Positions 53,606 to 61,645 of a DNA stretch of 64,000 nucleotides are shown here, piece after piece. A model generated the notes under the pieces. It ran no database searches, was not told where the DNA came from, and worked only from the letters and a program-made list of their open reading frames with translations. How positions within the stretch are numbered: position 1 is the first letter of the stretch; each line of letters opens with the position of its first letter. Source of the stretch: Candidatus Binatia bacterium. Lineage in GTDB: Bacteria; Desulfobacterota; Binatia; Bin18. Location of the stretch: the NCBI GenBank assembly GCA_963664395.2, contig OY761159.2, positions 4,032,001 to 4,096,000 on the forward strand. Reading direction: 5' to 3'. The translations under genes and the position numbers were made by a program.

Positions 53606-54844
53606 ATGACCGAACACACACAGATTCTTGAAGGGGTGCGTATTCTTGACCTGACCCAATGGCTGGCCGGACCGCAGGCCACGCGGCTGATGGTTGACCT
53701 TGGGGCGGAAGTCATCAAGGTTGAACTCCCACCCAAAGGTGAACACAGCCGGCACATCCGCATCGTGCCCAAGGACGGCAAGGATGGCGCTACGCCGAGC
53801 TATTTCATCATGCACAACCGGGGCAAGAAGAGCCTGTGCGTGGATATCAAAACCCCGGCCGGCCAAGCTGTCATCAAGGATTTGGTCCAGCACTGCGACG
53901 TGCTGTTCGAGAACTTCACGCCCGGCATCATGGAGCGCTACGGTCTGACCTACGACAGCCTGTCCGCCATCAACCCGAGCCTCGTTATGTGCTCGGTCTC
54001 GACCTACGGGCAGACCGGGCCGTACTCCCGCCGCATCGGCAACGATCTGGTTGCTCTGGCGGCTGGCGGATTGCTGCATCTGGTTGGCGAGCCGGACGGC
54101 TATCCGGCCTATCCGGCCTCGGCCATTGGCGATCACATGACCGCGCTCAACGCCTTCGGCGCGATCATGGCGGCCCTGTTTCATCGTCAGCGCACGGGCG
54201 AGGGCCAGTATATCGACCTGGCCCTGGTGGACTGCACCTACAACTCGCACGACTGGGCGCTGGCGGCCTACAGCGTGACCGACGGCGCGGTCGACCCGCA
54301 GCGCGGTGGCTCGCAGCGGGCCGGGGCGTTTCCGTACGGCGCGTTCAAATCAAAGGACGGCTATATCGCCATCGGACTGATTACCGAAGCTCATTGGGTG
54401 ACGTTGGTGAAACACATGGGGCACGAAGAGTTACTGACCTCGCCCGAATTCAAGACCAACCGCTGGCGCATTCAGAACGCGGACGCCCTGCGCGTCATTA
54501 TCGAAGAGTGGCTGCAATCGCTGCCGAGTGATGAAGAGGCGATTCGGATTATGGCCGATGAACTCCGCCTGCCGGTTGCCCCGATTCTGTCCGTCGGCCA
54601 ATTCGCGGAAGACCCGCATTTAAGCAAACGCATGATAGAAACCATGCCCAACCCCGACTACGGCGAGCTGAAGCTACTCAAATCTCCCCACAAATTTTCC
54701 AAAACCCCGCCGCGCATCCCCGGCCCGGCGTCACGCCTTGGTCAACATACGGACGAGTTGCTGGGCGGCTTATGCGGATATACGGCCGAACGGATACGGG
54801 AATTAAAGGACCAGGGCATCCTTGTTGAGAATGCGGAAGGGTAG
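53606..54844 (+). CDS. CaiB/BaiF family III CoA-transferase
   Basis: LEGVRILDLT, AGP, LGAEVIKVE, NRGKKS, ENFTPG, YGQTGPY. Confidence 0.95.
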   Translation: MTEHTQILEGVRILDLTQWLAGPQATRLMVDLGAEVIKVELPPKGEHSRHIRIVPKDGKDGATPSYFIMHNRGKKSLCVDIKTPAGQAVIKDLVQHCDVLFENFTPGIMERYGLTYDSLSAINPSLVMCSVSTYGQTGPYSRRIGNDLVALAAGGLLHLVGEPDGYPAYPASAIGDHMTALNAFGAIMAALFHRQRTGEGQYIDLALVDCTYNSHDWALAAYSVTDGAVDPQRGGSQRAGAFPYGAFKSKDGYIAIGLITEAHWVTLVKHMGHEELLTSPEFKTNRWRIQNADALRVIIEEWLQSLPSDEEAIRIMADELRLPVAPILSVGQFAEDPHLSKRMIETMPNPDYGELKLLKSPHKFSKTPPRIPGPASRLGQHTDELLGGLCGYTAERIRELKDQGILVENAEG

Positions 54845-54863: not shown

Positions 54864-55613
54864 ATGCAGAAGCGGAAGAAAATGACGGGCAGTTGGAGGA
54901 CGAGCAGGGTGCTGACAATCGGGCTCGTCTGCGCTGTGGGTCTGCTGCCGCTGACCGCTCAAGCTCAAAACGCAGCCTATAACCAGACCACTCTGGTCGC
55001 ACTGTGTAAGATATCCGCCGCCGGTGCCTCGGGTCGGTTCGACACCGCCGAGCAACTCTTCAGCGGGGGCAAAGACGCCGGACTCAGCGAACTCCAGATG
55101 TACGAGGCGGTCTTGAACCTGCTGCCCTATATCGGCTATCCGCGGACTCTGAGCACGCTGGGACGCTTTCAGCAGGTATATCCCGACTACATCAGCCAAC
55201 GTTCCCAGGGGCAGAGTCCCCAGCCGACCGAACCCTGGCCGGAGTATGCCCCGACCATCTGGGGAGAACGCGGGATGCGGGTTCAAGAGCAGCTAACCGG
55301 CGGCAGCGAGGAGAACAAAAGGCTCATCCAGCGGCTCAGTCAGATCAGTCCCGAACTGGCCGAATGGGTGCGCTATGACGACTTCGGTCGGGTCTTTGGT
55401 CGAGCCGGGCTACTTCTGATTGAACGCGAAGCTATCGTGCTTGGCGCGCTGATTGCCCAGGGAGCGCCCCAGATCGCTTTTCACTACAAAGCCCTGCTCC
55501 GCGTCGGGGGCGATGACAGCCTGGTCGATGCCCTGCTTGAGGCGGTAACGGACATCGTGGATAAAAGGGCGCTGGCCTCCGCGCGGCACCATATTGCCGA
55601 GGCACGCAAGTAG
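54864..55613 (+). CDS. Carboxymuconolactone decarboxylase/AhpD-like protein with a signal-like N-terminus
   Basis: YIGYPR, FGRVFGRAGL...ERE...GALIAQG, FH..ALLRVG. Start uncertain. Confidence 0.7.
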   Translation: MQKRKKMTGSWRTSRVLTIGLVCAVGLLPLTAQAQNAAYNQTTLVALCKISAAGASGRFDTAEQLFSGGKDAGLSELQMYEAVLNLLPYIGYPRTLSTLGRFQQVYPDYISQRSQGQSPQPTEPWPEYAPTIWGERGMRVQEQLTGGSEENKRLIQRLSQISPELAEWVRYDDFGRVFGRAGLLLIEREAIVLGALIAQGAPQIAFHYKALLRVGGDDSLVDALLEAVTDIVDKRALASARHHIAEARK

Positions 55614-55634
55614 GAAACCACTGTAGATGAGGCC

Positions 55635-58472
55635 ATGACGCCAAGCCAATTCATCACCAAGTGGCACCCCTCCCAACTCAAAGAGCGCTCGGCGTCGCAA
55701 GAACACTTCATCGACCTGTGTCGGCTGCTGGATGAACCCACGCCCGCCGAAGCCGACCCTATCGGCGACCACTACTGCTTCGAGCGCGGTGCGCGTAAAG
55801 ACACCGGCGGCAAAGGTTGGGCCGACGTGTGGAAGCGTCACCACTTCGCCTGGGAGTACAAAGGCAAACACAAGAATCTGGACGCCGCCTTTAATCAGTT
55901 GCGGCAATCCGCCCTGGCCCTGGAGAATCCGCCCCTGTTGATCGTCTCGGACATGGCGCGGTTCCGTGTCCGCACCAATTGGACCAACAGCGTCAGCGAG
56001 ACCCACGAGTTTACGCTGGACGATCTCGCGGACGCAGCCACGCGCAATATCTTAAAATGGGCGATGTCCGAGCCCGAACGGCTCCGGCCCGGCGAAACTC
56101 GCCAAACCGTCACCGAACGCGCGGCCACCACTTTTGCCGCCCTGGCGCAGGCGTTACGGGAGCTCGGCCACGAGAGTCACGTCGTTGCGCATTTCGTGAA
56201 CCGTCTCGTCTTCTGCATGTTCGCCGAAGACGTGGGCCTGCTGCCGAACAACATGTTCACGCGGATGTTGGAACGCAGCCGGCTCAAGCCGGAGCAGTTT
56301 GTCGAGTATGCATCGCGTCTGTTTGGCGCGATGTCCACGGGTGGCGATGTCGGTTTCGAGGAAGTGGCGTGGTTCAACGGCGGGCTGTTCGACGATGACA
56401 CGGCCCTGCCGCTGGAGAAAGCCGACATTGACACCGTACTCGTGGCGGCGGCACTCGACTGGTCGGAGATTGATCCTTCGATACTGGGTACGCTGTTCTA
56501 GCGCGGGCTTGACCCGGACAAACGCTCGCAACTAGGCGCGCATTACACCGACCGGGACAAGATCATGCTGATCGTCGAGCCGGTGATAATCCGCCCCTGG
56601 CTGGCCGAGTGGGAGACGGCCAAGGCCGAGATTGTGTCGAGTCTGGAAAAGGAAACTGCCGCCAAATCAGCCTCTACACAGACCCGGCGACGTAGAGAGG
56701 CCGAGCGCCTGTTAGGTCAGTTCCTGGAGCGGCTGCGGAGTTTCACCGTGCTTGATCCTGCCTGTGGCTCTGGCAACTTCCTGTATCTGGCGCTTCATGC
56801 CCTCAAGGACTTGGAGCATCGCGTACAGTTGGAGGCCGAAGCGCTGGGCTTAGAGAGAGAATTCCCCGCCCTCGGTCCGGCCAACGTCAAGGGTATTGAG
56901 ATCAACCCCTACGCTGCCGAACTGGCCCGTGTGTCGGTCTGGATTGGCGAAATCCAATGGATGCGGCGCAACGGTTTCAACGAATCCCGCGCCCCGATCC
57001 TCAAACCGCTCGACACCATCGAATGCCGGGACGCCCTCCTGACGCCGGAGGGGAGGGAATCCGAGTGGCCCGAGGCCGATGTCGTGATCGGGAATCCACC
57101 GTTTTTGGGTAGCAAGCGAATGCGGGAGGTATTGAGCGACGAGTACACGGAAAGCTTGCGACAGTCCTATGCTGGTGCGGTCCCGGCATTCGCGGACCTT
57201 GTGTGCTACTGGTTCCATAGAGCGAGTGAGCTGGTAGCCGAGGAGAAGATTTCTCGTGGTGGCTTGGTCGCTACCAATTCGGTCCGGGACGGGAGGAGCC
57301 GAGTTGTGATCGACCGGATTGCTGAAAGCGGTATCATTTTCGAGGCATGGTCTGACGAGCCCTGGATAGTTGAAGGGGCTGCTGTGCGGGTCTCCATAGT
57401 CTGCTTCGCTGGCCAGGAAGCTGGACTTACTCCTCATCTGAATGGTGTGCCGGTGGGTTCCATCCATACTGACCTTACAGCAGACGGTGTTGATCTGACG
57501 CAAGCGGTTCAACAGGCCGAGAACAAAGGCGTAGCATTTGCGGGCAACAAGAAGTACGGCACGTTCGATATTCCCGGCGATCTTGCGCGAACTTGGTTAT
57601 GCCTGCCTGCCAATCCGAACGGCAAGCCGAACTCCGATGTCCTCAGGCCATGGATCAACGGGATGGATGTGGTCCGCCGCCCTGCTGGTAAGTGGATTAT
57701 CGACTTCGGTTCTTCCATGAGCGAATCTGATAGCGCCCTCTACGAAGTGCCGTTTGCCCATGTGGCGGAACACGTCAAGCCGACGCGCATTAAAGACCGC
57801 GCAAGACAGACCAGAGAACTCTGGTGGAGGCATGAACGTCCTCGCCCGGAAATGTGGAGGGTGCTGCAAAGTTTATCACGCTACATCGCAACTCCAGCGG
57901 TTGCAAAGTATCGCCCGTTCGTCTGGTGTGACGCTCGGATTTGTCCGGATCAGCAACTGATCGTCATCGCGCGCGACGACGACACAACGTTCGGTATCTT
58001 GCACAGCCGCTTTCACGAGGTCTGGTCGCTCCGGCTGGGAACCAGTCTGGAAGACCGTCCGCGCTACACGCCCACCACGACGTTCGAGACGTTCCCGTTT
58101 CCAGAAGGACTATCGCCTGACATCCCCGCCGCCGACTATGCCGACAATCCACACGCCGTTGCCATTGCCGAGGCCGCCCGGCGGCTGGTCGAGTTGCGCG
58201 ACCGCTGGCTCAACCCGCCCGAATGGGTGGAGTGGGTAGACGAACCGGTGCCCGGCTATCCCAAGCGCCCGGTTCCCCGCAACGAGGATGCCGCGAAAGA
58301 ACTCAAGAAACGCACCCTGACCAACCTGTATAACACTCGCCCACAATGGCTGGCCGACGCGCACACCGCCCTTGATGAAGCCGTGGCAGCGGCTTACGGC
58401 TGGGACGCTGATATTTCTGACGATGAGGCGTTGCGCGAACTGCTGGAGTTGAATCTGGCGCGAAGCGAGTGA
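55635..58472 (+). pseudogene. MmeI-like (type IIL/YeeA) restriction-modification enzyme interrupted by an in-frame TAG
   Basis: ERSASQEHF, ADVW..EYK, FNGGLF, GTLF*RGLDP..RSQLGAHYT, LDPACGSGNFL, GNPPF, RYTPTTTFETFPFP. TAG at 56499-56501; both ORFs are in the same frame. Confidence 0.9.
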
Positions 58473-58538
58473 AAAGTACCCGGCGGGAGGAGATGTTGGG
58501 TTACGTTTCGCTAAGGGTCCTCGTCGAGTGGGTGCGGT

Positions 58539-58567
58539 TTGACCAGGTCGCTTCTAGTTGCTACTTT
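58539..58567 (+). promoter_or_regulatory. Probable leaderless promoter of the TA pair
   Basis: TTGACC-17-TACTTT, then 7 nt to ATG 58575; no SD sequence. Confidence 0.55.
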
Positions 58568-58574
58568 TCCGTAC

Positions 58575-58868
58575 ATGAGAGCGGTTGGAATAAAAGTATT
58601 GAACAGCCGGTTAAGCGAGTATGTGCGGCTCGCTGCATCGGGCGAGACCATTCTGGTCACGGACCGCGACCGTGTTGTCGCGGAAATCGGTCCTCCGAGA
58701 GAAACCAGAAGCCCAATGCTTGCCGATGCACTGCTGGCCGAGGCCGTGCGCAAGGGGTGGCTGACGCCGCCAACGCTGCCCGCCACGGGGGAGCCTCCGA
58801 CTCCGGAACGAGTTGCGCCGCTCTCTACTCTTCTTGGCGAATTGGATGCCGATAGAAGCGAACGGTGA
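58575..58868 (+). CDS. Phd/YefM-family antitoxin
   Basis: MRAVGIKVLNSRLSEYVR..ASGETILVTDRDRVVA. Confidence 0.9.
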   Translation: MRAVGIKVLNSRLSEYVRLAASGETILVTDRDRVVAEIGPPRETRSPMLADALLAEAVRKGWLTPPTLPATGEPPTPERVAPLSTLLGELDADRSER

Positions 58869-59260
58869 TCTACCTCGATACCTCTGTTGTGCTCGCCCAA
58901 CTCCTGGCGGAAGACCGCCGCCCACCCATCTCGCTTTGGGACGGGGCCCTGGTGGCCAGCCGGTTGATGGAATACGAGGTCTGGACCCGACTACATGCGC
59001 GCGGACTTGCGGAGTCGCACGGCGAGGCCGCAAGCGGGCTCATCGGACGGGTCGCGTTGCTGGAGCTATCCCCACCAGTGCTCGCGCGCGCCCTGGATGC
59101 TTTTCCCGTGCCTGTTCGCACGCTCGACGCCCTGCATCTGGCGTCATGCGACTACCTGCGCAACCAAGGGCAGGCGGTCTCGCTTGCCAGCTACGATCGC
59201 CGGATGACCGCCGCTGCCCGCGCCCTGGCTATGCCGGTCTACGACCTGGAACCCTCCTGA
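58865..59260 (+). CDS. vapC: VapC PIN-domain toxin
   Basis: MIYLDTSV, RTLDALHLAS, SYDRRM. Confidence 0.9.
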   Translation: MIYLDTSVVLAQLLAEDRRPPISLWDGALVASRLMEYEVWTRLHARGLAESHGEAASGLIGRVALLELSPPVLARALDAFPVPVRTLDALHLASCDYLRNQGQAVSLASYDRRMTAAARALAMPVYDLEPS

Positions 59261-59261
59261 A

Positions 59262-59395
59262 CCGTGCGACGGATTACGGTCGGAACGAGGCGAGCGACGG
59301 AAAGGCGTTGCGCGAACTGCTGGAATTGAATCTGACGCGGGGTGAGTGAAAAGTGATTGGTAGCGGTGAAGAGATGTCAGGTTACGCTTCGCTAA
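59262..59395 (+). repeat. Diverged second copy of the MTase 3' end plus a truncated REP
   Basis: Matches 58381-58514. Core 59303-59354 vs 58426-58477 is 47/52 identical (ALRELLELNLTRGE* vs ALRELLELNLARSE*). Confidence 0.9.
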
Positions 59396-59478
59396 CTTGA
59401 GGCGGTAGCGGACATCGTGGACGAAAAGGCGCTGGCCTCCGCGCGGCAGCATGTTGCCGAGGCGCGCAAGTAGGAAAC
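59396..59478 (+). repeat. Diverged second copy of the CMD gene 3' end
   Basis: Encodes LEAVADIVDEKALASARQHVAEARK* vs LEAVTDIVDKRALASARHHIAEARK*. Confidence 0.95.
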
Positions 59479-59503
59479 AAATTTTCAGAGGGAGCGCAAA
59501 GAT

Positions 59504-59533
59504 GTCAGGCTGCGCTTCGCTAACCTGACCTAC
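59504..59533 (-). repeat. Complete GTAG-family REP
   Basis: GTCAGGCTGCGCTTCGCTAACCTGACCTAC; same family as 52371-52402. Confidence 0.8.
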
Positions 59534-59556: not shown

Positions 59557-60512
59557 GTGACAAACGAAACCAGCGGATTTCGCTTATACCTGCAAGTGCG
59601 GATTGGAAATAACCTGAATACCGATGAGGAACTCCTCACAACCTACCTTGATGGGCGAGAGGTGACGATCAGACCCAGCTATGGGCCTCCGTCGATTTCA
59701 AAAGCGGAGTGGCTCGTCTTCGAGGCGCGTGGGTTCCCCACCGAACCGGAAGCGCGTACTTTCGGCGAGCGGCTCAGAGCAAACGTACAGCTTGCGGCGC
59801 TTTGTTCCAGCCCTGGTACGTTGATACGGGCCTAGACGAGGTCTTAGGTTCGATCAACGAAGAATACTATCGGTCAAAGGGCTGGCTGAAACCCCACCAG
59901 CGGCACGGCGATGATGTACATGGTCTCTTAATTCTCCCCGATGATGACAATACGGTGTTTAGCCGCGGCCGGGCGAAGGGAACGACCAAATCGGATCCTA
60001 AGCTCTTCCTTGAGGCAATGCGCGAACTAGCCGATCAACCGTCAGTCACAGAACCTACAATCGCTCTTTCAGTGCGGCTCCTGAATCTTGCTCACATCAA
60101 TTCTCAGCCACCCGCCAGAATCGTCCTCGCTGTTTCAGCCGTCGAGACGGTCGCTCAGGACGAGAATTGGACTGATGAGCAACGTGCTTTGATAAAGAAT
60201 CTCGCTGTGGAGATTGAAGATCCAGAAGTCAAAGAAGCCGTCAAACGTATGCATATGCATAAGATCAGCATACTACAGGGGATAAAACGGGTGCTGGATA
60301 ACAATAGCCTCGGCCATCTGTGGGGAGAGTGGAAAGACCTTTATGAGCGCCGCAGTCGTTTCTTTCATGGAGGCAGAGAGTTCACAAGGCAGGAGATCCA
60401 GAAACTTGCTTCCGACGCCCTGAAGCTCTGCGGCAAGATTATTCTTGGGATCATCAAGCGAACGGGCCTCAAGCTGCCATCTGTTGCCAGCGTGAATTTC
60501 AGAGGTATCTAA
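59557..60512 (+). pseudogene. Frameshifted HEPN-domain (Apea-like) protein
   Basis: ORF1 (...LAALCSS) continues in the -1 frame near 59810 (VDTG...). C-terminus has AVSAVE and LYERRSRFFHG (RxxxxH). Confidence 0.7.
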
Positions 60513-60631: not shown

Positions 60632-61645
60632 ATGCTGCCAGTTGGTTATCTCCCCTGTACTCAAGACCCCCCGTCCGGGACGAATATGGGGCGGGTGATT
60701 GATGAAGTGATTGCCGAAGCCCAGGCCGCCGAGGCCAGTGGCTGGGACGGCTGTTTTCTGACCGAACACCACCAACAGGAAGATGGCTATCTGCCCAACC
60801 CGTTGCTGCTGGCCGGATTGGTTGGGATGAAGACTGAGCGCCTGAAGGTTGGGACGTGCGTGCTGTTGATGCCGCTCCACCATCCCGTTCATGTTGCGGA
60901 AGACTGTGCCGTGATTGACCAGGCGACCAAGGGGCGTCTCGTCCTGAGCATCGGTGTGGGCTATCAGCCGCACGATTTCGAGGCGTTCGAGATTCCGATC
61001 ACCGAGCGAGCCACCCGGACCGAAGAAGCCGTCGATATTATCCGCAAGAGCTGGACGGGTGAGCGCTTCTCTTTTGAGGGCAAACATTTTCACTATCAGG
61101 ACACTTTGATTACGCCCGGTCCGAGTCAGCAGCCGGGCCCGCCGATCTGGATGGCGTCGTGGACGCCGGTCGGGCTGCGCCGTGCGGGCCGGCTGGCGGA
61201 TGGCTGGATCGCCGATCCGGTGCAGAGTCTCAGCGTCATTAAAGACTATGCCGCCCGCTATCGCGCCGCGGCGGAAAAGGCTGGCCGCAAGCCGTATATC
61301 TGCCTGATGCGGGATGCCGTGCTGGCCGACAGCATGGCCGACGCCGAAGCCGCCAGCGAGCCGACCATGTATACCCACCGTTTCTACTTTCAGTACGACG
61401 CCTATGTCCCGGATGAACATATCAAAGATGTCAAGACGCCCGAAGAGCTGACCTTTGCCACGGCCTCCACAGAACGGCTGATCGTCGGTTCGCCCGAAGA
61501 CTGCCTGGAGCAACTCCAGATGTGGAAAGAGGCCATTCAGCCGGACTACTTGATTATGCGCTTTCGACAGCCGGGCGGCCCGTCGCATGAGCATACGTTG
61601 CAGGCGATACGAACCTTTGGTGAAAAGGTGATTCCGAATTTGTAA
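60632..61645 (+). CDS. LLM-class flavin-dependent oxidoreductase
   Basis: FLTEHH, HPVHVAEDCA, KGRLVLSIGVGY, PPIWMA, RAGRLADGW. Confidence 0.92.
   Translation: MLPVGYLPCTQDPPSGTNMGRVIDEVIAEAQAAEASGWDGCFLTEHHQQEDGYLPNPLLLAGLVGMKTERLKVGTCVLLMPLHHPVHVAEDCAVIDQATKGRLVLSIGVGYQPHDFEAFEIPITERATRTEEAVDIIRKSWTGERFSFEGKHFHYQDTLITPGPSQQPGPPIWMASWTPVGLRRAGRLADGWIADPVQSLSVIKDYAARYRAAAEKAGRKPYICLMRDAVLADSMADAEAASEPTMYTHRFYFQYDAYVPDEHIKDVKTPEELTFATASTERLIVGSPEDCLEQLQMWKEAIQPDYLIMRFRQPGGPSHEHTLQAIRTFGEKVIPNL

Follow-up and report, generated by a model that had tools for sequence, protein, structure and literature searches.

Nested orphan gene ends at a defence-rich hotspot of a Binatia genome: a probable case of serial, recombinase-free integration

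We analysed 64,000 nucleotides (nt) of the genome of a sponge-associated Candidatus Binatia bacterium (contig OY761159.2, positions 4,032,001 to 4,096,000; hereafter the window, which is C1:4032001-4096000 of this genome, G000), in which an islet of defence-type genes lies behind an intact gene of the carboxymuconolactone decarboxylase-like (CMD) family. Within this islet the 3′ ends of two genes, the CMD gene and a restriction-modification (RM) gene, are each found again downstream as orphan fragments, with truncated repetitive extragenic palindromes (REPs) at the joints. The original prediction, made from the letters of the window alone, had read this as the iterative capture of cargo into gene ends. 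We consider it probable that the arrangement arose by serial, homology-anchored integration of DNA from related Binatia without a recombinase, and a comparable architecture recurs elsewhere in the same genome. Coordinates are window positions unless a contig or locus label (C1, L035) is given, and congeners carry labels such as G012.

The nest can be read gene by gene, all features lying on the + strand. The conserved upstream flank is a CoA-transferase family III gene (CoA-T, 53606..54844; Pfam PF02515, 363 bits). It is followed by the intact CMD gene (54864..55613; PF02627), whose last 75 nt, together with the stop codon and 5 nt more, form CMD end A, the first copy of a repeat (55536..55618). 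Next stands an MmeI-like type IIL RM gene (55635..58472) in which Pfam recognises all five MmeI domains (MmeI_N, MmeI_hel, MmeI_Mtase, MmeI_TRD and MmeI_C); its end A is the first copy of a second DNA-level repeat (58419..58477). Behind it lies half REP A (58491..58514), consisting of a left arm and loop that end in GCTAA, with the right arm missing and no hairpin predicted. A Phd/YefM-like antitoxin gene of 109 aa (58539..58868; PF02604, 23.6 bits, below the cut-off of 29.8) overlaps by 4 nt a VapC-type PIN toxin gene that is intact in the window (58865..59260; PF01850, 33.8 bits), a VapBC-type arrangement. The toxin gene is succeeded by the displaced MmeI-gene 3′ end B, an orphan fragment with its stop codon (59262..59354, located by repeat finder and frame reading), and by half REP B (59372..59395, from the repeat and the REP profile), which ends in GCTAA(C) and is joined to the displaced CMD 3′ end B, again an orphan with a stop (59396..59478). 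Only then comes a full REP (59500..59533), in its native position behind a CMD end as at the empty site of G025, followed by a HEPN-like gene (59557..60512) that is frameshifted into two overlapping open reading frames (ORFs; 59557-59835 and 59709-60512). A luciferase-like monooxygenase gene (LLM, 60632..61645; PF00296) forms the conserved downstream flank.

Both the nested gene ends and the two half REPs are thus present as first described, in our reading of the sequence and by repeat finder. The two CMD ends are 83 nt long, identical at 76/83 positions, the match first given (92%), spaced 3860 nt apart, and share 21 nt as their longest identical block. For the RM gene a second copy does exist, although in place of the 47/52 match first given we measured 59 nt at 86% identity (58419-58477 and 59296-59354). 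When the frame of end B is read by eye, protein-level homology reaches back to about 59262, directly behind the vapC stop, and the fragment differs by one codon-sized indel and a 1-nt deletion. Each of the two MmeI ends is followed by about 20 nt and then by a REP left arm and loop. Both A copies are in frame, so that the CMD protein and the MmeI C-terminus are complete. The MmeI frame is the same on both sides of a single TAG codon (56499-56501), which cuts it, and the gene is therefore probably inactive in the window strain. The MmeI gene (nonsense) and the HEPN-like gene (frameshift) are broken in the window and the toxin-antitoxin (TA) pair is intact. BLAST of the islet against plasmids returned only distant MmeI-type genes (65-69% identity) and no shared islet.

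The stretch is present in sequencing runs of 11 studies, several of them labelled sponge metagenome. Of 20 runs listed, we compared four, drawn from as many different studies; one of them may be the source sample. All four junctions (55618/9, 58514/5, 59395/6 and 59478/9) are bridged by contigs with 0-4 differences, namely records 17, 23 and 24 of run X16, records 14 and 16 of X15, record 32 of X19 and record 7 of X1. Every contig of X15, X19 and X1 that covers position 56499 has G there, whereas X16 has T; by this comparison the nonsense allele seems to be strain-specific.

The site is a defence-rich, variable hotspot across the genus, at which empty, donor-like and composite haplotypes exist. 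Sixty-one genomes were searched, full-length CMD orthologues were found in 15 congeners (87-94% amino acid identity), and about 14 kb was fetched around 14 of these loci, G008 being left out as its contig was too short. LLM is syntenic in 13 of the 14 fetched loci; G037 has a different downstream region, with no LLM synteny in the roughly 12 kb fetched. The comparison suggested at the outset, for empty and alternatively filled CMD sites among strains, could thus be made. The locus of G025 is empty, the CMD gene being followed by a 25-nt spacer, an inverted REP pair and LLM. Intact MmeI genes are carried by G012 (953 aa) and G026 (951 aa) and a decayed one by G004, whilst in G002 and G005 the gene is reduced to its final ~220 nt, joined to the region of the CMD stop and followed by half REP A and phd (with vapC in G002). 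The half REP A junction is thereby present in both. G001, G002 and G026 have the order vapC, MmeI end B and full REP, without CMD end B, and half REP B of the window is full length in these three counterparts. A donor-like state, in which cargo lies directly behind the CMD gene and no CMD end B follows, is found in G026, G004, G001 and G002.

The fullest counterpart of the window is G012. It carries half REP B joined to CMD end B, then a REP and the HEPN-like gene, with the same junction as in the window. Moreover, its intact MmeI gene is followed by the end-B spacer and a full REP, which is the parent arrangement that an import model requires. G012 additionally contains a Schlafen/AlbA_2 gene and, before phd, a third fragment of the MmeI gene, and its half REP before CMD end B has a 10-nt internal duplication in the loop (ttacgcttc ttacgtttc) that is absent from the window copy. 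The vapC gene has an internal deletion in G012 and G026. Comparison of G000, G001 and G012 places the left boundary of the phd cassette at about 58521 in three different left-hand contexts.

Nesting extends one level further out than first described. A short copy of the CoA-T 3′ end lies directly behind the CMD gene in G018, G021 and G023 (BLAST matches of 48-65 nt), and in G002 a 327-nt copy lies downstream of the entire islet. Separate events at the hotspot have different starting points, 83 nt before the end of the CMD repeat, about 80 and 327 nt before that of CoA-T and about 135 nt before that of the MmeI gene. Cargo at the site is completely different between congeners: beyond the MmeI-type RM gene, VapBC and the Schlafen/AlbA_2 gene, it includes HEPN_LA2681 (G021), a TIR-like gene (G018 and G023), PDC-S11 (G016) and Uma2 (G011). 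Iterative nested acquisition and the existence of a defence hotspot, both of which the original prediction had proposed, are therefore supported.

The two CMD ends differ from each other at 7/83 positions, within a spread of 5-13/83 among the orthologous CMD ends of 15 genomes. Derived bases common to the B copies of G000 and G012 suggest an old event in which both genomes share. The copies may be alleles from different strains, as first proposed, but their divergence could just as well have built up after such an event. We attempted to decide from the 83-nt ends of the 15 genomes which CMD copy is foreign; the informative sites were too few and this line was dropped. The view that the copies are not target-site duplications was borne out.

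Nor is the pattern unique to the window. The genome (5.04 Mb in 14 contigs) was divided into 24-kb chunks, each of which was BLASTed against itself. This yielded 572 same-strand local repeat pairs, 406 of them 40-400 nt long. A filter for pairs in which one copy ends a long ORF and the other is orphaned left 44 candidates, from which manual curation accepted, besides the window, 16 displaced 3′ ends and 4 displaced 5′ ends (20 loci). This tally is manual, ORF-based and non-exhaustive, the filter having missed the MmeI pair itself; two other ORF-context classifiers were dropped as too strict (3 and 1 hits) or too noisy (90 and 76 hits) in this GC-rich genome. The displaced ends are 44-243 nt long and 75-99% identical to their counterparts, and enclose 0.7-11 kb of cargo. 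The most recent pairs are near-identical (99.3% over 141 nt and 98.6% over 71 nt). Genes with displaced ends include, beside the CMD and MmeI-type genes, a CoA-T gene, a UvrD-like helicase gene and luciferase-like monooxygenase genes. Neither the length of the repeat nor the point at which it starts is related from one locus to another, and no shared motif was seen across loci at the left edge of the orphan copies or at the target sites. Stacking also occurs at two places outside the window, one being C1:495107-503066, where two 5′-type events are adjacent, and the other the split urease operon described below.

Pfam annotation of the 144 ORFs at these 20 loci identified a TA or defence-type family in about 13 of the 20 cargoes. 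The TA genes comprise Phd with PIN (twice), RelB-YafQ, HicA, a HicB-like gene, DUF4258 with DUF2283, and DUF433; the RM genes are of type I, Eco57I/MmeI-like, or N6_N4 methylases accompanied by HATPase or ResIII. Fic, T5orf172 and a reverse transcriptase also occur, as does one entire CRISPR-Cas I-F set. Other cargoes are metabolic or of other kinds, namely a cupin with a glyoxalase, a PaiB-like FMN-binding protein, an FAD oxidase, an SDR protein and three giant secreted proteins. With plain metabolic genes among the cargo, this is not a device dedicated to defence capture. Displaced 5′ ends occur beside the 3′ ends of the original prediction. Orientation of the cargo is mixed at the loci outside the window. 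The GC content of the cargo (0.55-0.65) equals that of the flanks, which fits donors of similar composition or long residence.

Three of these loci illustrate the range. At L084 (C1:2163500-2176800) the urease accessory operon is split between ureD and ureEF by an 11-kb island that carries type I RM genes, a reverse transcriptase, an SDH-type protease and a HicB-like gene. It contains a 62-nt orphan ureE start and a 610-nt repeat of 94% identity (2169879-2170488 and 2174895-2175504 on C1), a mirror image of the nest in the window. At L078 (C1:3495000-3508800) the CRISPR-Cas I-F set (Cas1, Cas2-3 and Csy1-4) and a repeat-rich stretch sit between the lptE stop codon and a 44-nt orphan copy of the lptE end, with no integrase. 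The third, a UvrD-like gene end with a Phd and PIN cassette, can be followed through the genus. Its orphan is longest in G000, G006 and G025 (139 nt) and much shorter in G002 (about 26 nt) and in G001 and G008 (about 13 nt, in two places in G001); it is gone in G026, where only the antitoxin remains, and the site is empty in G012, G016, G018, G005 and G023. This series shows the decay of orphan end B.

The UvrD-like locus with its TA cassette occurs twice in the single-contig assembly G001, near both ends (C1:5132539-5136295 and 78573-82332) and with near-equal identity to the query; either an unclosed circle with redundant termini or a merger of two strains may be the cause, and contamination of the assembly is estimated at 8%. 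A 1205-nt direct repeat of 100% identity, its copies 13.8 kb apart, was also noted in G000 (C1:3880778-3881982 and 3894614-3895818).

Classical mobile-element enzymes are scarce in this genus, and no recombinase was found in the cargo. None of the 144 ORFs gave an integrase, resolvase or transposase match in Pfam at E<=1e-4; the nearest approaches were a reverse transcriptase and a sub-threshold TnsA-like endonuclease domain in a ResIII protein. G000 encodes five tyrosine recombinases (PF00589, at C1:1588926, 2793875, 2916752, 3321250 and 3371477), none of them in a cargo or in the window, and one partial resolvase (PF00239) outside every cargo interval. Six short hits to DDE_Tnp_1 lie elsewhere, and Pfam searches of G000 for the IS110 family and for rve returned nothing. 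An IS110-type insertion targeting REPs had been entertained and was dropped, the family having no hit in the genome. The statement that the locus itself holds no recombinase gene accordingly stands, the PF00589 and PF00239 hits being far from the window. With respect to DNA uptake and repair in this organism, which is known from metagenome assemblies only, ComEC gave one hit in G000 and Ku none, for which reason non-homologous end joining was dropped as the sealing step.

We hypothesise that, at each import, the distal part of a resident gene arrived on one fragment with the donor DNA that lay downstream of that gene. One side would have been integrated through homology to the resident gene, and the other sealed by an illegitimate, microhomology-type joint. 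The incoming copy would keep the gene intact (end A), whilst the resident tail (end B) would be orphaned behind the cargo and then decay. Repetition from the same side could produce the order seen in the window: CMD (A), MmeI (A) and half REP, phd-vapC, MmeI B and half REP, CMD B, REP and HEPN-like gene. Older cargo would be pushed outward and the oldest layers would lie furthest from the anchor. REP hairpins may act as preferred points of breakage and joining where present, and TA cassettes probably persist at layer boundaries because their loss is lethal. As first proposed, homology in the neighbouring gene is the likely anchor.

Two routes could yield this product, homology-facilitated illegitimate recombination (HFIR) of a linear fragment, or circularisation of the fragment followed by a single crossover within the short segment that fragment and chromosome share. 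We regard them as close to evenly matched, HFIR being slightly the likelier. In favour of HFIR are the length of the upstream anchor and the occurrence of donor-like haplotypes; the duplication inherent in a single crossover, and the near-identity of the most recent pairs, favour the latter.

Several observations weigh against such serial import. The genome-wide tally derives from ORFs and manual curation rather than a gene caller, and from G000 alone. The divergence of 7/83 between the CMD ends may, on the sequences, reflect decay after the event rather than an allelic difference. Moreover, within each of G000 and G012 copies A and B share lineage-specific bases (repeat positions 13 and 17), which suggests gene conversion between them after the species split and blurs their history. 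We infer the direction of transfer at a distance, since the nearest relatives are about 90% identical and no donor tract or left crossover was located upstream of end A. Classical HFIR deletes recipient DNA, and a joint within the homologous region, which makes a duplicate, is atypical of it. In E. coli it was also very rare, at 3e-10 per recipient (PMC3240628). For a single crossover the fragment must first circularise, although G000 gave no Ku hit, and exchange must take place within segments of 44-155 nt whose identity is now 75-93%. None of the 22 repeats exceeds 250 nt, which neither route predicts unless longer, unstable repeats have been lost, and 3′ ends outnumber 5′ ends by 18:4, for which an assumed selection on promoters is the only explanation offered. 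Lastly, REPs lie at the junctions of 3 of the 22 loci where about 0.4 would be expected (a rough estimate, from about 1.7% of genes having a REP just downstream), an enrichment that a purely generic process leaves unexplained unless hairpin fragility is assumed. We propose that long unstable repeats were lost, that selection acted against separating a gene from its promoter, and that the hairpins are fragile. REPs are known to be associated with gyrase cleavage and to serve as join points of duplications.

What part the REPs play was the least certain element of the original prediction, which placed the joints at or near a REP and raised the possibility of nicking by a REP-associated tyrosine transposase (RAYT). 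The REP is a true repeat family. Searching with the loop core returned 65 sites, and an nhmmer profile gave 100 hits at E<=10, 64 of these spanning the full length. The family consensus, TGTCGGATTACGCTCCGCTAATCCGACCTAC, has a GTAG head and a hairpin when read on the complementary strand, and copies sit behind stop codons. A fold of -7.0 kcal/mol (z -2.6) is predicted for the full REP of the window and none for half REP A; half REP B, taken with the CMD bases next to it, does not fold better than shuffled sequences. At the hotspot, five joints lie in or within 5 nt of a REP: GCTAA/GGGTCC (G000, G002 and G005), GCTAA(C)/TTGAGG (G000 and G012), GCTAACCT/AGG (G004), REP plus GGCTG against the CoA-T end (G002), and a joint at the left edge of a REP (the G018 group). 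Further truncated REPs are cut in the same 8-nt zone, at C1:2243484 (ending in GCTAACCT) and as right halves at C1:370444, 370982 and 2065740. Two REPs cut on the inner side at or near GCTAA flank a BrnA-like antitoxin gene and its degenerate partner (C1:370444-370998), which makes this another TA cassette with cut REPs as its bounds.

A dedicated capture system, in which a tyrosine nuclease of the HUH type nicks the REP hairpin and joins the cut end into the 3′ part of an upstream gene, would account for these joints, and a RAYT-like ORF of 223 aa does exist (C1:3119285-3119956; L035:1393-2064, - strand). Even so, we think it unlikely. A REP lies within 10 nt of a junction at three of the 22 loci, CMD, MmeI and C1:3040021/3040717, so that the association of displaced ends with REPs expected genome-wide was seen at only one of the 20 other loci; at the remaining 19, every junction is more than 400 nt from the nearest REP. 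Since most junctions lack a REP, the element is not required. The RAYT-like ORF scores 59.5 bits against NCBIfam REP_Tyr_transpos (cut-off 80), has a Pro/Gly-rich insertion between its two conserved halves, and is flanked by no GTAGGTCGG-type REP; it is the only RAYT-like gene found. The DNA adjacent to this ORF has a 361-nt copy of 84% identity at C1:3111955-3112315.

The break points themselves also differ. Four bonds are involved, after GCTAA, after GCTAACCT, before GCTAA and outside the hairpin, and the apparent clustering is partly a detection bias, because nhmmer recognises only halves cut in that zone. Both half REPs of the window do end after GCTAA, as first claimed; however, the bases that follow the break at 59395/59396 (C.TGA) also fit the REP arm, and this break therefore lies within imperfect microhomology. 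The joints whose parents can be reconstructed pair CCTGA of the REP arm with CTTGA of the CMD gene (1+3 nt), and share GCTG at the REP/CoA-T joint of G002 (4 nt). From their sequences, these look like microhomology joints rather than site-specific cuts, and the gene target sites have no common motif. At the other loci no similarity was visible in the 60 nt to the left of copy B. Joints in or beside REPs are thus real at this locus, but a REP-specific mechanism is not supported, and we regard REPs as preferred break points when present, not as needed ones. A related proposal, that REP hairpins, possibly cut by a RAYT, are functional boundaries of gene-plus-REP cassettes that build defence islands behind core genes by homology-anchored capture with no integrase, seems to us equally doubtful.

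Rearrangement in situ is slightly less likely again. Under this explanation unequal crossing-over or replication template switching between sister chromosomes would have duplicated the gene ends, and the cargo would have been shuffled in later by double homologous recombination. REPs were reportedly described by Shyamala et al. in 1990 as join points of tandem duplications in Salmonella. The gene conversion suggested by the bases shared between A and B would also sit well with it, and transformation can produce merodiploids (PMC3784515). A tandem duplication, however, would copy the cargo too and not only a gene end of 44-243 nt, and CMD end B is followed by a spacer and REP of the empty-site type, with no second MmeI gene. 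Cargo that differs wholly between congeners at one site is a further difficulty.

We give marginally less credence to decayed islands once borne by an integrase, their own or acting in trans, that targeted the 3′ end of the CMD or MmeI gene, brought a replacement end, as islands aimed at tRNA genes and gene 3′ ends do, and left the repeats as attL and attR. Direct repeats that restore the 3′ end of a target gene are the classic signature of integrative elements, and the CMD copies have a longest identical block of 21 nt. Against this, no integrase occurs in the 22 cargoes or at the hotspot of five congeners, each of which has 3-5 tyrosine recombinases (PF00589), three of them conserved; the 0.7-0.9 kb cargoes have no room for one; and 22 different target genes would demand many specificities. 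Displaced 5′ ends, and repeats whose lengths and start points vary independently, are equally hard to accommodate. Finally, a chimera of two strains collapsed into one contig, which a metagenome-type assembly with 5.4% estimated contamination might invite and which had been named as a possible refutation, has next to no probability, being contradicted by the error-free or near error-free bridging contigs from four runs of four studies, by the same nest in the separate assembly G012 and by parts of it in G002, G005, G001 and G026.

The gene at the outer edge of the islet was predicted to be a HEPN gene. Its intact homologue in G012 encodes 315 aa (L026:5500-6447, - strand), and the family has 61 homologues. 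Searches of Pfam, NCBIfam and PADLOC gave no match, and a protein atlas returned unnamed clusters only. An R-x4-H motif (R263 and H268) is invariant in 27/27 aligned homologues. A structural model of the G012 protein (mean predicted confidence, pLDDT, 85.5) matched nothing in the PDB at E<=0.001 with Foldseek. With VIA-align, HEPN proteins were the five best of 48,161 chains for residues 163-304 (Z 7.4-7.6, a middling range common for helical bundles; 103-117 residues aligned at a root-mean-square deviation of 3.0-3.8). The N-terminal domain (model residues 8-127) is beta-rich and matched nothing. The model thus lends moderate support to a HEPN-like gene with a C-terminal helical bundle: the invariant motif and the structural matches agree with the prediction, whereas the gene has no profile match and is frameshifted in the window.

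How does this locus relate to known systems? HFIR has been described in Acinetobacter, S. pneumoniae and P. stutzeri. Like the events proposed here, it combines one homologous anchor with one joint of a few bases of microhomology, needs no site-specific recombinase and places foreign DNA beside a conserved gene (PMC2884548, PMC3240628), and it has been proposed as a source of variable genome segments (PMC2884548). It differs in that HFIR in the laboratory deletes recipient DNA beyond the anchor, whereas the Binatia joint, known here from its footprints, lies inside the gene end and leaves a duplicate. In an E. coli conjugation assay with one-ended homology to the lacZ 3′ end, flanking duplications were found in 56/60 clones (PMC3240628). 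The geometry of the product of a single crossover with a circularised fragment, A, cargo and B, is that of the window; the assay, however, used 1 kb of perfect homology and engineered ends, whereas the Binatia segments are 44-243 nt long and now 75-99% identical (PMC3240628).

The closest natural parallel is at rhs and type VI secretion system (T6SS) loci, for which HFIR was proposed to explain serial displacement of 3′ ends and an analogy with integrons was drawn (PMC5361080, Kirchberger 2017). There, as here, modules anchored upstream push old 3′ ends, there together with the partner gene, downstream to give ordered orphan arrays (PMC5361080). The selected cargo at those loci is the variable tip of a toxin, whereas in Binatia ordinary genes with nearly the same ends flank unrelated cargo, and 5′ ends are displaced too. 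No polymorphic toxin with a conserved core, variable tip and immunity gene is among the displaced genes, and the locus is not a member of the rhs/T6SS group. C-terminal displacement at rhs loci is said to have been described by Jackson in 2009.

An integron resembles the islet in its serial, small, often co-oriented cassettes at one site, with older ones outward and a richness in TA and defence genes. It differs in that the islet has no intI, attI or attC, its joints are not conserved, and each layer carries a gene remnant. When we looked for attC-like bounds, the cassette edges proved to be a gene-end copy and unrelated sequence, REP fragments recurring at this locus only. REP/RAYT systems share the GTAG head, the hairpin and the ~64 full copies behind stop codons, but no link was found between the RAYT-like gene and this REP family, and most junctions have no REP. 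The suggestion of an undescribed, integron-like system is therefore not upheld; the locus is neither an integron nor, in all likelihood, an integrase island, a REP/RAYT system is not demonstrated, and the finding is not a new system. By analogy, it works like C-terminal displacement at rhs/T6SS loci and like the products of HFIR or single crossover, here at ordinary genes. In the open-access literature searched on HFIR, REPs and C-terminal displacement, this architecture is described for polymorphic toxin loci only. What is new is that a symbiont genus poor in integrases provides a well-documented case from nature, one in which the layers can be read as a stratigraphy and the REP joints offer a lead.

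The orphan ends can be used as a stratigraphy, giving the order of acquisition, the exact joints and a dating by decay, and through them the relative weight of this route in island building is measurable across genomes. They also carry a warning for annotation, as short in-frame gene-tail fragments behind islets are remnants and not genes. REP hairpins as fragile or preferred joint sites offer a testable lead; were the cassette proposal true, REPs would play the part of attC in a new kind of cassette system, one of symbiont genomes with few integrases. If serial, homology-anchored integration is correct, a homology-anchored illegitimate route, seen so far mainly in laboratory assays and inferred at polymorphic toxin loci, would be acting in nature, and this genus would be accumulating accessory and defence genes almost without mobile-element machinery.

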